Of a stretch of 64,000 nucleotides of DNA, positions 27,730 through 49,821 are shown one piece after another. The number at the start of each line of letters is the position of its first letter. Positions within the stretch are counted from its first letter, which is position 1. Location of the stretch: NCBI GenBank assembly GCA_951406725.2, contig OX597826.1:61938001-62002000 (forward strand), given 5' to 3'. This DNA comes from Octopus vulgaris. Taxonomy: Eukaryota. The notes beneath the pieces are model-generated. The model was not told the DNA's origin, did no database searches, and was given only the letters and a program-made list of their open reading frames with translations. Made by a program: the position numbers and the translations under genes.

Positions 27730-29700
27730 ATAGTGAAGGATTATCAATCCGGGTAAAATACTTCATAAGCTCTCTATTAACACACCAGGCTAACAATATT
27801 ATTTAGATTAGTGAAGAAATCCGTTGCTACAACATGGCATTAACGGAGGCCGGCTATATTGAACAAAATCAACAACATCCCTGAGTGCGATTCGTGTACG
27901 AAAGAGGATTTTACTCCACCTGTATAATACAACTCATGTACGACCTGTTGGGGCAACGGTGGAGTGATAATAAATAATAGGAGGAACAGATGCAAGAGGA
28001 AATTAAACATAAACACTAACCTCACGTTAGGGCGCCCCGAGGTTGGTACGCTCCTTATAATTAGTAAGTCTAGCAAGATAACGGAACATAATCGAAAGGA
28101 TAAGACATGCGGATGAGATTTTAGACCCACTGGTAAGAAAACAAGAACAACGATCCCCACTGAACGACAGCCAAAATAGGAACAGGGAGAGACTTGAATT
28201 AGACACCAGGGTTAAGGACCTAGATGAAAATGAGACTAGTTATAATGACAACAGAGATCAGAATAAACATAAACCGAATAACCCAGGGAAGAAAAGGGGT
28301 AAGATAGATTATCACAATATAAATAAGAAAAAGTAATATGGTCCATTGCTCCATTTGGGGTCCAAATCGATACTAATATTCACAAAAAATTCTTTGCAGC
28401 TCTAGACAAACATTTCCTGTATGAAAGATTGTTTAACCGGTACAATGTAAAATTTGCCTACTCCACTACTAGGAACCTAGCACAAATTATAACGTCCCAC
28501 AACTCCCGTAGATTAAGGGAATTATAAAGCTTAAATTCAACAGACCTACACCGGAATAAAACACATAATAAATACATGGACATGGAGGAGTGTATAAATA
28601 CTATTAGTGATAGAAATAGCCATAAATATATTAGGAATAATAACGATAATCAGACAACATTTTAGTTATAACGCTAGTAATAACGATGGTAACGAGTCGA
28701 CTAAAATCAGTAACGAGAAGGGTCGTGGGGGGCATGGTCTGAATGAAGGTCGAGATCGCATGAGAAATGCGAGTAATAAGAGCGTAGGAAACAATGGAAA
28801 GGAAATACAAATTAAGGCTTATGGTAAGAATAATTGGGAGGACAATATAAATAAAAATGATACTCTAAATGACAAGACCCGTGGCAGTGGTGGTCATGGT
28901 GATGATGACAAGAGTAACAATAATATGGATGGTAACTGTAATGGTAATGACGGTGGTAATATCAAAAAGGCTGCGAGCTGGCATATATGTTAGCACGCCG
29001 GGTTAAATGCCTTGCGATATTTCGTCTGCCGTTTCGTACTGTGTTCAAATTCCGCCGAGATCGACTTTGCCTTTCATCCTTTCGAGGTCGATTAAATAAG
29101 TACTAGTTAATCACTGGGGTCGATGTAATCGACCTAATCCCCCTGTCTATCCTTGTTTGCCCCCTCTATGTTTAGGACCCTATGGGCAATAAAGAAATAA
29201 TTATTAATGATAACGGTAATGACACCTATTGTGGTAATATCTGCTCAGATAGTAACAATAGAAAGGACGGTGCCGGTTGTAAATGTAGAGGGGATACGGA
29301 ATGTGTTTTAGATAAATCATATTTTGAAAGAAATATAGTATATGAACGTACAGTAGTAACCCGGAACAAAATTTGCCAGTACATAGGATGCTGCGCGATG
29401 ACATTTAAGCTCTGGTGTTACAACCACATCTCGTCATTTAGGCATAAAAATAAAGAAACTGTGACATCACCTAGCAAGCAAATATGGAGACCTAGGGTGG
29501 AAACACACAGGATACGAGCAAAATTATCAATCCTTAGTCGAGCTAAACCATACGAAATAGGTCGAAGTAAATGTGAACTTTGCCTACGGGAGTAAATCCA
29601 AATCCTCACGCCAATGAGTAGTTTTATTAACCGTAGGCAGGAATTAGTGATACGATGTAAGCATTTTTATAAATCGTTCACTAGATTCCCTGATTAACTT
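27730..29700 (+). mobile_element. Penelope-like element 3' half (RT thumb, linker, GIY-YIG), pseudogenised
   Basis: YNMALTEAGY; TNIHKKFFAALDKHF..LFNRYNVKFAYSTTRNLAQIITSHN; CKCRGDTEC..NIVY..YIGCCAMTFKLWCYNHISSF..CELCLRE..NRRQELVIRCKH. Confidence 0.88.
28969..29198 (+). mobile_element. SINE family A inserted in the Penelope linker
   Basis: Same head, core and tail as 9005-9236. Confidence 0.9.
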
Positions 29701-42330: not shown

Positions 42331-42485
42331 AATCTACTTTACGCTACTTTGATTAAAAAATTAGAGTTGAAGTGTTCCATAGATGAGAATTTGAATCAAA
42401 TTCAAAATGACTGAAGACTAGCATCCTGCTTGAAATACAAGAGTACCAACTAATTTGAATCAAACGGTTTTGATCCATATATATA

Positions 42486-42700
42486 TACTTTATTTAAAAG
42501 CAGCAGAAATATAATAAAAGTTGTTACTCAGAGTTTCACAAACTGTCCGTCTGATGAACGGGAACGTAAAACTCTGAGTAACAGCTTTTATTATATTTCC
42601 GTTGCTTTTCAATAAAGTATTTTTTTTTCTACCTCTGGTATCTGAGTACTCTCTTTTCCACCTTGTTTCACTGTTTCACATTTATGTGCTTACTCCGGTA
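42486..42700 (+). mobile_element. Fold-back hammerhead element (family H), left arm truncated
   Basis: Inverted arms at 42486-42539 and 42566-42619. CTGATGA-ACG-GGAA-CGT-AAAA-CTCTGA-GTA-ACAG at 42551-42584. Reverse complement of 49230-49457. Confidence 0.8.
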
Positions 42701-42773
42701 ATGTGACCGCGTGTGTACCGTTGGCGATTTTTTCCTTCTTTCTTCCCTTCTCTGGATCTTTCCTTCTCCTGTG

Positions 42774-42807
42774 TTTCCGACGAAGTGCTCCGCTCGAAAC
42801 GTTAAAC
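42774..42807 (+). ncRNA. Minimal hammerhead-like motif (CCGACGA variant)
   Basis: GTTT-CCGACGA-A-GTGC-TCC-GCTC-GAAAC-GTT-AAAC with palindromic AACGTT. Lies in a pyrimidine-rich element at 42700-42906. Confidence 0.5.
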
Positions 42808-42905
42808 CCTCCTTCTTTCCTTCTTTCCTGGGCGTCCAATAATACTATATTTATTCCACGTCCTCGCGTTGTTGTGTTTTTTTTGTGCTTTCTTGTTTAG
42901 ATTAA

Positions 42906-47999: not shown

Positions 48000-49088
48000 G
48001 ACTTGTTAAACGAAACTATCATGTGTTATAAGTGCTATGAACAAAAAACAAACCACCTCAAGTACATGGATAACCAAAAACCTTTCGCTAAAATTGCTCA
48101 AAGTTTCAGAATTGGGATCGGAATGTGCATAGGGCTGGACAAAAGTGCAAGAGTCCCTCTGAGAAGAAGCTACTTATTCAGCATTGAAAGGCACTGCACT
48201 CGACACAGACATAGAACTAAGAAAATTAGACCACAACTCCCCATACAAATATCCATGAATAAACGAAACAGCTAAAATACAACACACAGAAATCAAAGAG
48301 AAATTTAGGGGTGAGTACTACAGAAGAGTCTGACTAATATTAAACAATGAACTTAATGCTAAAACTAAGATAATAGGGATAAACACGCTAGCCATACCAG
48401 TCATAAATTACTACGTTAACATAATGAACTGGAAGATCAGTTAATTAAGAAACCTAGATAGAAAAAACAGAAAACTACTAACAGCATACCGAAGTCACCA
48501 TCCCAAAGTAGACGCAGACAGAATATATTTACCCCGCTCAGAAGGAGGCCGTGGCCTGACAGATAGAAAACTACTATGAAATAGCAACAGTTTGACTAGC
48601 AAAATACTTAGAAATAAAGAGTGGAAGATTATTGCATGTAGTAATGTAAAAAGAGAAAAAAAGTAAACGCTTTTCTTTGTACATAAAGTGCGGACAAAAT
48701 ACAAAACAAAAAGAAAATACATTGACACACTGACTTCAGATGACAACATAGCAGAAATGGTCAAAAAGGGACAAAAAACAACATGAAAACTGAATTACAA
48801 AAGATATTGAAGAAGAAATGGCGAGAAAAATAACTTCATATTGAATACCCTGCTAGGCTTGACAGAGAGGAAATGAACCTACATAAAAGCCAACAATGGC
48901 TCAAGAGCTCTTGACTAAAAGCTGAACCGGAAGGACTGACTCAAGCTGCACAAAAGTAATCTCTGACTACAAACAATTATAAAAAACAAAATAATGAAAA
49001 CAGGCTTCAACACCAAATGCAGAATGTGCAACCAGGACAATGAGACAGTTGACCACATCATCTCGGGTTGCCCGGTCCTTGCCATGTC

Positions 49089-49092
<4 letters not shown>
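48000..49092 (+). mobile_element. R4/Dong-type LINE RT-to-zinc-knuckle remnant, cut off at (TA)n
   Basis: NHLKYMD, IGMCIGLDKSA, INTLAIPVINY, LDRKNRKLLT..HHPKVDADRIYLPRSEGGRGL, CRMCNQDNETVDHIISGCPVLA. Confidence 0.9.
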
Positions 49093-49128
<36 letters not shown>

Positions 49129-49332
49129 TCCCGGGTTGATTCCCACAGTAAGTAGTAAACACATAAATGTGAAGTACTGTTTCAAGGTGGAAAATTTCTC
49201 TTGAATGAACAGTACTCAAATACCAGTGGTACCGGAGTAAACACATAAATGTGAAACAAGGTGGAAAAAGTACTCAAATACCAGTGGTAGAGTAATATGC
49301 TTTATTTAAAGCAGCAGAAAATTCAACAAAAT

Positions 49333-49370
49333 CTGTTACTCTGAGTTTCTCGTTGCCGTTCATCAGACAG
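49333..49370 (-). ncRNA. Type-I hammerhead-like motif, left arm
   Basis: CTGT-CTGATGA-ACG-GCAA-CGA-GAAA-CTCAGA-GTA-ACAG. Canonical core, GNRA loop, GUA site, A-A mismatch at the base of stem II. Confidence 0.72.
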
Positions 49371-49386
49371 TTTTTGCTAGAAAAAA

Positions 49387-49424
49387 CTGTCTGATGAACG
49401 GCAACGAGAAACTCAGAGTAATAG
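49387..49424 (+). ncRNA. Type-I hammerhead-like motif, right arm
   Basis: CTGT-CTGATGA-ACG-GCAA-CGA-GAAA-CTCAGA-GTA-ATAG. Confidence 0.7.
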
Positions 49425-49456
49425 ATTTTGTTGAATTTTTTGCTGCTTTAAATAAA

Positions 49457-49499
<43 letters not shown>

Positions 49500-49821
49500 T
49501 ATAAAATTAATCAAAGGACACACCTAGTATGTCCTTTGATTAATTTTAATCACTCGGCTATTTAATGGTATTTTTGGGCCTGCTATCGCCTGTGTCATTG
49601 ATTCTGTTATTATCATTTTTTAAATTGTTACATTGGATAATAATAGAATTAATGTCACCTTCGTAAATTAATTTTATATATATATATATATGTGTGTGTA
49701 TGTGTGTGTGTGTGTGTGTGTACGGGCACGACAAAGTAAGCAGTTATATCCACTGGACCATATGTCAAAAAATAATATTGTTGGGAACTACTCGTATCCT
49801 ACGAAAACCACCACCACCACC

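Follow-up and report, generated by a model that had tools for sequence, protein, structure and literature searches.

A near-perfect palindrome in the window (the whole 64,000-nucleotide stretch of octopus DNA that was analyzed) belongs to the shortest class of insertions of an autonomous Penelope-like element (PLE) of the Hydra clade. Both palindrome arms are the ends of a young, autonomous element of 3,352 bp. We consider it probable that the 227-bp insertion carrying these two ends formed afresh at its site, where the start of the element RNA was copied onto both strands.

The features of the insertion and its immediate surroundings are collected in Table 1. Self-comparison of the window agreed with the original prediction of 76-bp palindromic arms with two mismatches. 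Specifically, nucleotides 49300-49375 and 49382-49457 are reverse complementary around a 6-nt center, and the mismatches fall at 49335/49422 and 49317/49440. Each arm reads CTGT-CTGATGA-ACGGCAACGA-GAAA-CTCAGAG-TA-AYAG and contains a minimal type I hammerhead motif, such that the insertion indeed carries two motifs, one per strand as had been claimed, located ~25 nt apart. The arms also represent inverted Penelope termini, as proposed, because they are 5′-truncated pLTR ends arranged head to head with a tail on one side. This architecture of an inverted, 5′-truncated copy with a tail at one end is that of EN+ PLE insertions. The extent originally given, 49300..49457, correctly delimits the arms but not the insertion, whose boundary lies farther left at the end of the 69-bp tail. 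By sequence inspection, no target-site duplication is discernible at the insertion beside the (TA)n tract.

Table 1. Mapped features of the palindromic insertion and adjoining DNA, in window positions.
Feature	Position	Strand	Description
Whole insertion	49231..49457	.	Two head-to-head 5′-truncated pLTR ends of a Hydra-clade Penelope-like element, tail on one arm
One-sided tail	49231..49299	-	Sequence separating the short from the long 3′ end site; 3-nt deletion relative to full-length copy L061
Bulged hairpin 1	49271..49294	-	About 6 nt past the short end site; folded, motif position mapped
Left arm, pLTR end, tail-bearing	49300..49375	-	76 bp
Minimal type I hammerhead, stem I intact	49333..49370	-	Predicted cut 49337/49336; architecture as Hydra-2_aMil (PMC8557442 File S2)
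Head-to-head junction	49376..49383	.	Left arm to about -16, right arm from about -8 of the core; A-run microhomology
Right arm, pLTR end, short 3′ end	49382..49457	+	76 bp
Minimal type I hammerhead, one G.U pair in stem I (49422)	49387..49424	+	Predicted cut 49420/49421
(TA)n target tract	49458..49503	.	Adjoins the right arm
Adjacent tail-only piece, diverged sister family	49154..49230	-	70% over 87 columns; probably an older insertion

The adjacent tail-only piece joins the tail end of the studied element via a TA, and the sister tail (49127-49231) matched only itself when searched. Tail-only partner arms that end in hairpin 1 are present also in loci L089, L093, and L106. Directly after the (TA)n tract, nucleotides 49503-49548 form a small AT-rich inverted repeat.

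A chance origin of the palindrome is ruled out because the exact 30-nt core occurs 3,754 times in the genome that was searched (G000, animal-type, 2.8 Gb in 227 contigs), compared to zero times for the reversed control. Core pairs separated by ~3.35 kb led to full-length copies. In one of these (L061), an arm plus tail is present at both ends of a 727-residue stop-to-stop frame, resulting in a unit of 3,352 bp. Alignment of the window insertion with this copy revealed 97.4% identity over 155 columns for nucleotides 49231-49382, and 94.2% identity in the opposite orientation for nucleotides 49377-49462. The Penelope origin given in the original prediction therefore holds, as arms and tail match a full-length, RT-encoding element whose 727-residue frame includes YRDD.

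The Hydra clade of EN+ PLEs is characterized, in the portions of Craig et al. 2021 (PMC8557442) considered, by RWK and DKT motifs, by CxCX5C, and by CxxC and CxH surrounding E/N, with no CCHH. Proteins P0001 and P0002 from the element carry LRWK and SDKT, which correspond to the RWK and DKT motifs. P0001 also includes CNCKNESSC, CRLC, and CRH, matching the CxCX5C, CxxC, and CxH motifs, and P0002 has one of these C residues changed. The Hydra-type residues (CxCX5C / CxxC..E..N..CxH) are conserved across 31 aligned proteins, and a CCHH motif, judged by eye, is absent from the element protein. The identity of the element as a Hydra-clade PLE is close to certain. Its copies also are inserted in (TA)n and carry a canonical hammerhead in the pLTR.

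The C terminus of the element protein exhibits VVY..YTG along with conserved R/H/E/N residues, and the protein has no Pfam match to GIY-YIG. Pfam searches with five frames, and then with P0002 and five homologues, identified no domain for the element protein, and a PDB sequence search with the 31-protein profile gave 0 matches. A GIY-YIG match in homologue P0004 (residues 504-529) was set aside, as it was not demonstrated to lie within the shared region. The AlphaFold model of the element protein has a pLDDT of 88.8, and its top Foldseek match is TERT 3du5 (E 4.5e-9). A total of 1,764 homologues were found among 7,998 scored candidates.

Copies of the element ends are abundant. A looser motif that spans sister subfamilies occurs 8,325 times in G000, a pattern of exact 15-mers identifies 630 short palindromes genome-wide, and 629 cores carry the exact 30-nt upstream flank. 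Inverted pairs form a continuous size series that extends from tens of bases to over 5 kb, up to full-length copies. At the large end of this series is a locus (L062, G000:C1:64213500-64223400) where two full-length copies are joined in head-to-head orientation; the frame is intact in one of them.

The anatomy of the copies was examined in a consecutive sample from contig C1, consisting of the first 100 exact cores on the list, for which 64 loci were fetched. Among these 100 cores, the 3′ end falls at the short site in 53, at the tail site in 39, into the ORF in 4, and elsewhere in 4. The two 3′ end sites are fixed, 67-72 nt apart, and likely represent two RT start sites. The 5′ ends cluster upstream of the core, with 31 at -13 to -19 and 14 at 0 to -11. 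None falls at -20 to -39, and the remaining 55 arms reach well past this hot spot. Extents of the 5′ end beyond ~170 nt are unreliable as a result of microsatellite length differences, and BLAST was used for those instead. Junctions judged by eye in 50 listed loci are of ~25 types, clustered 13-19 nt upstream of the core, with eight perfect palindromes and eight of exactly the type seen in the window. Where a junction is asymmetric, it can have either polarity with respect to the tail.

The 3′ ends of the two arms are paired in a strict manner. We compiled 44 short palindromes, 24 chosen by BLAST to the window arm and 20 from the consecutive sample, wherein 36 combine a tail end with a short end, eight have one end unclassified, and none combine two tail ends or two short ends. 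At a site with two alleles, 34 of 35 two-armed loci carry one and the same lineage allele in both arms, compared to 58% expected, and both lineage alleles are found in short and long insertions. A sister subfamily contributes 245 short palindromes, the window-type junction among them, and sister-subfamily palindromes with a different upstream sequence (ATTTTAAC), a variant lacking CTAG, stop at the equivalent A. The substitution spectrum of 105 arms includes too few changes, and is too confounded by junction positions, to serve as an indicator of editing. The varied junctions, one-tail pairing, both polarities, arm-allele agreement, and sister-subfamily recurrence together suggest that the palindrome is probably rebuilt at each insertion and is not self-amplifying.

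The hammerhead motif in each arm includes CUGAUGA, a short stem II with a GCAA loop, GAAA, a 9-nt stem III (ACUCAGAGU), a GUA site, and a 4-bp stem I. Thus, the core CUGANGA/GAAA/UH with stems I-III is present in each arm. The GNRA loop that was predicted to cap stem II is observed, but the stem has only two Watson-Crick pairs, and positions 10.1/11.1, which are expected to pair (usually as G-C) in a type I hammerhead, form an A.A mismatch. An Infernal-type search had been suggested as a check on the motif. An Rfam scan of this kind with E ≤ 10 recovered no hammerhead family, and only miRNA-type hairpin models scoring below their gathering scores were returned.

Homologues of the element provide a view of the motif in the clade. 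Hammerheads are present in 52 of 77 metagenome loci encoding relatives (from the best 80 of 499), compared to 2 of 77 reversed controls. When stem I was left free, all four of its positions were paired in 48 of 57 distinct motifs with varied pair types, whereas 1000 stem I shuffles gave a mean of 4.7 and a maximum of 13, without control for the relatedness of the 57 motifs. Covariation, which the original prediction had proposed as a check, is evident across these relatives. Stem III is palindromic among these motifs. Positions 10.1/11.1 of the 57 homologues (from loci L125-L201) are U.U in 27 and G-C in 20, and A.A is seen in none, while across the subfamilies in G000 position 11.1 is A, G, U, or C. 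The covarying stem I and these pair counts indicate that the hammerhead motif is under selection in the clade, where mismatch at 10.1/11.1 is common. Many sister copies in G000 carry a change of U4 to C in the core (CCGAUGA, CCGACGA), keep the GNRA loop, and vary only at unpaired positions.

The original prediction also noted that minimal type I hammerheads in which stem III is palindromic are suited to dimer formation. This is consistent with a computed stem III self-duplex of -7.4 kcal/mol and with a cofold minimum for two left-arm copies in which stem III is paired between molecules. The accompanying proposal that a transcript could switch between a self-cleaving fold and a long hairpin is disfavored by the calculations. 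The whole-insertion hairpin is computed at -125 to -135 kcal/mol, and the pair probability of ribozyme stem II is ~1e-19. Moreover, the antisense arm is transcribed before the ribozyme, and the second ribozyme resides on the other strand, so a single transcript cannot form the ribozyme dimer. The ribozyme inside the palindrome is thus predicted to be locked in the long hairpin, and the two predicted self-cutting motifs are probably inert passengers with no switch function. No hot spot at the cut site was found, as only ~3 of 46 truncated partner arms, examined by eye, end cleanly within 2 nt of it; comparison of this set with the 630 palindromes is rough because the search patterns differ. The lack of clustering agrees with the use of uncleaved RNA as the main template by Poseidon_Ac, whose ribozyme cleavage is dispensable for insertion in vitro (portions considered of Frangieh et al. 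2024, PMC11167929). If the hammerhead is active anywhere, it is likely to be so in full-length RNA, where it would act as a stem III dimer, perhaps with protein assistance.

How the palindromes arise is, in our moderately confident view, best described by twin-primed run-off. After cleavage of the (TA)n tract by the element protein, both target strands would receive a copy of the beginning of the element RNA. This RNA would begin near the A of the initiator-like CCATTCT at -17, and RT would initiate internally at the pair of 3′ sites, both of which immediately precede a conserved bulged hairpin. Both short cDNAs would then run off the RNA 5′ end and be joined via a few bases of microhomology. 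Longer insertions would be formed when RT jumps, or when it reads a tandem or circular template. Such an extra step is needed by this model for the 55 of 100 arms that extend past the hot spot.

Several landmarks are consistent with this scheme. The 5′ stop coincides with CCATTCT, and a TATA-like word is located 27 nt upstream, both being consensus matches alone. Both 3′ sites are followed, after 6-8 nt, by a bulged hairpin, and the two hairpins share one design. Hairpin 2 resides past the tail end and is confined to copies that extend into the ORF. In 39 of 48 homologous motifs, a similar hairpin is located after the hammerhead, at least twice in 22 of them (by eye, with no shuffle control). 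In loci L151 and L166, a 3′ copy ends in (TA)n just ahead of such a hairpin; eight other loci are uninformative. The 5′ hot spot also contains the self-complementary words CTAG and TTAA and a possible splice acceptor, which are alternative possible causes. The splice acceptor could produce the hot spot, but arms extend past its AG. Likewise, the arm-allele concordance fits fold-back or gene conversion too. Also counting against the scheme, the arms of the window insertion are mismatched with one another at 2 sites.

Poseidon_Ac offers the closest biochemical parallels in the portions of PMC11167929 considered. In vitro, RT initiates internally at two sites that delimit the tail, and the RNA must include the beginning of the ORF. 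As with the octopus element, there are two 3′ sites bounding the tail and AT-rich targets. However, Poseidon_Ac belongs to a different clade, and neither one start per strand nor run-off palindromes were found in those portions. The assay reported there revealed no difference between the two strands in RT start site, and therefore the strict one-tail asymmetry of the octopus insertions is not explained by that work. A more specific proposal, which we put forward only tentatively, is that twin-primed strong-stop cDNAs are recorded in the genome as the short palindromes. An RT dimer would initiate once at each hairpin-marked site, one site per target strand, with uncleaved RNA as the template, and both cDNAs would run off where transcription begins. 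If true, the junctions would map the element promoter, and the job of the hammerhead would be to make circular or joined template for full-length copies.

The main rival to twin-primed run-off is fold-back self-priming, in which cDNA or an antisense template pairs back at TTTTT/AAAAA or CTAG and copies its own strand, with the sequence setting the hot spot. Such self-priming has been proposed for Penelope inverted junctions (portions considered of PMC3846280), and both the sharing of alleles between arms and the perfect palindromes and window-type junctions, each 8 of the 50 listed, count in its favor. We nevertheless judge it unlikely, given that asymmetric junctions are found in either orientation with respect to the tail, that the stop position is retained in the subfamily variant without CTAG, and that the same start site is frequent among single arms and among arms whose partners are truncated or tail-only. 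A different possibility, made in the original prediction, is that the palindrome is its own non-autonomous element, which is transcribed, processed by its ribozymes, copied as a unit, and subject to a ribozyme/hairpin switch. The existence of 630 copies and the frequency of a few junction types would suit such an element, and some secondary copying of palindromes may occur. This explanation becomes very doubtful in the face of ~25 junction types in 50 loci that span both polarities and both allelic lineages, the recurrence of the window-type junction in a different subfamily, a ribozyme fold that is negligible relative to the hairpin, and the paucity of partner arms ending at the cut site.

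Least plausible is that the palindrome is a DNA-transposon derivative (MITE) or an assembly fold-back artefact. The TA flanks and long inverted arms do look MITE-like, and the contigs listed for four sequencing runs cover the repeat alone, with none spanning the palindrome locus or the whole stretch. Yet the arms are ends of an RT-encoding element arranged head to head with an asymmetric tail, hundreds of loci display varied junctions, and the arms in the window are not identical, with two mismatched sites. As for assembly fold-back, the existence of 630 such palindromes with many different junctions makes it unlikely. No RNA run was listed among the sequencing runs carrying the sequence. The sole variants in the sequencing-run contigs (49350) are subfamily alleles that are present in large runs too. 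Membership in the MITE class was rejected, as the expected symmetric terminal inverted repeats and uniform copies are replaced here by an asymmetric tail, variable junctions, and an RT-encoding parent.

The octopus insertion and its parent element can be placed beside known systems, as they are described in the portions of the cited papers considered. Like other members of the Hydra clade (PMC8557442), the octopus element has a single ORF with RT followed by a putative C-terminal endonuclease region, (TA)n targets, and a canonical hammerhead. Hammerheads of like design are listed for the clade. Stem I of the palindrome hammerhead is identical to that of Hydra-2_aMil and stem III nearly so, and Penelope-13_HM includes a 5′-truncated inverted copy with a hammerhead on each strand, as observed here. 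In contrast, the octopus element is 3.35 kb when most of those listed are under 3 kb, its tail is ~70 nt rather than the 30-40 bp described for PLEs in general, its 2-bp stem II is closed by A.A, and its hammerhead is unlike the one given there for Hydra-1_Obim, an octopus family. No junction statistics are given in the portions of PMC8557442 considered.

Metazoan PLE minimal hammerheads occur as dual opposite-strand motifs ~100-700 bp apart (Cervera and de la Pena 2014, PMC4209133). The octopus hammerheads are likewise of type I with a short stem I and a palindromic stem III for dimers, but the pair here is ~25 nt apart within a near-perfect palindrome, and the G10.1-C11.1 pair termed "highly conserved" in that paper is absent. 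Penelope in Adineta vaga and Drosophila virilis (PMC3846280, PMC2377424) exhibits inverted 5′-truncated pLTRs, a tail at one end, and palindromic junctions, as here. Those arrangements were explained by self-priming, whereas the insert here consists of two ends only. Non-LTR retrozymes (bioRxiv 10.64898/2026.07.22.740005) share with the palindrome a non-coding nature, a relationship to PLEs, and a type I hammerhead. This class was set aside, however, because its units are head-to-tail tandems with same-strand ribozymes, unlike the head-to-head, opposite-strand arrangement of the palindrome.

Published precedents thus exist for inverted truncated pLTRs and for one-sided tails (PMC8557442, PMC3846280), as well as for minimal hammerheads paired on opposite strands (PMC4209133). 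Our literature search, with subscription journals, Repbase, and Dfam outside its scope, recovered no paper on the octopus family or on PLE twin priming. As an object, the insertion at 49231-49457 is ordinary retroelement debris. Its value is as material on how PLEs build inverted ends and one-sided tails. The octopus family is young, has copies with intact frames, and provides three sharp landmarks (two 3′ sites and one 5′ stop) along with paired hairpins, all testable in vitro. In addition, hundreds of near-perfect ~80-bp hairpins could feed editing or small-RNA pathways if transcribed.

Other repeats reside elsewhere in the window. An older sister-family insertion at 42480-42700, ~80% identical to the studied arm, has one full hammerhead arm plus tail and an inverted arm that is truncated in stem II. 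It is followed at 42700-42900 by a high-copy ~200-bp repeat in (TA)n with a hammerhead-like motif of CCGACGA core at 42777 and 2,265 first-look candidates; this repeat was rejected as part of the studied element and represents a separate family. Nucleotides 48700-49090 are a broken 3′ piece with a CxxC...H...C knuckle, which we take to resemble a restriction-like-endonuclease LINE. Finally, degenerate pieces that resemble the Hydra protein in its C-terminal portion, with 30-41% identity, are located at 28330-28524 and 29278-29664 (+) and at 61930-61507 (-).
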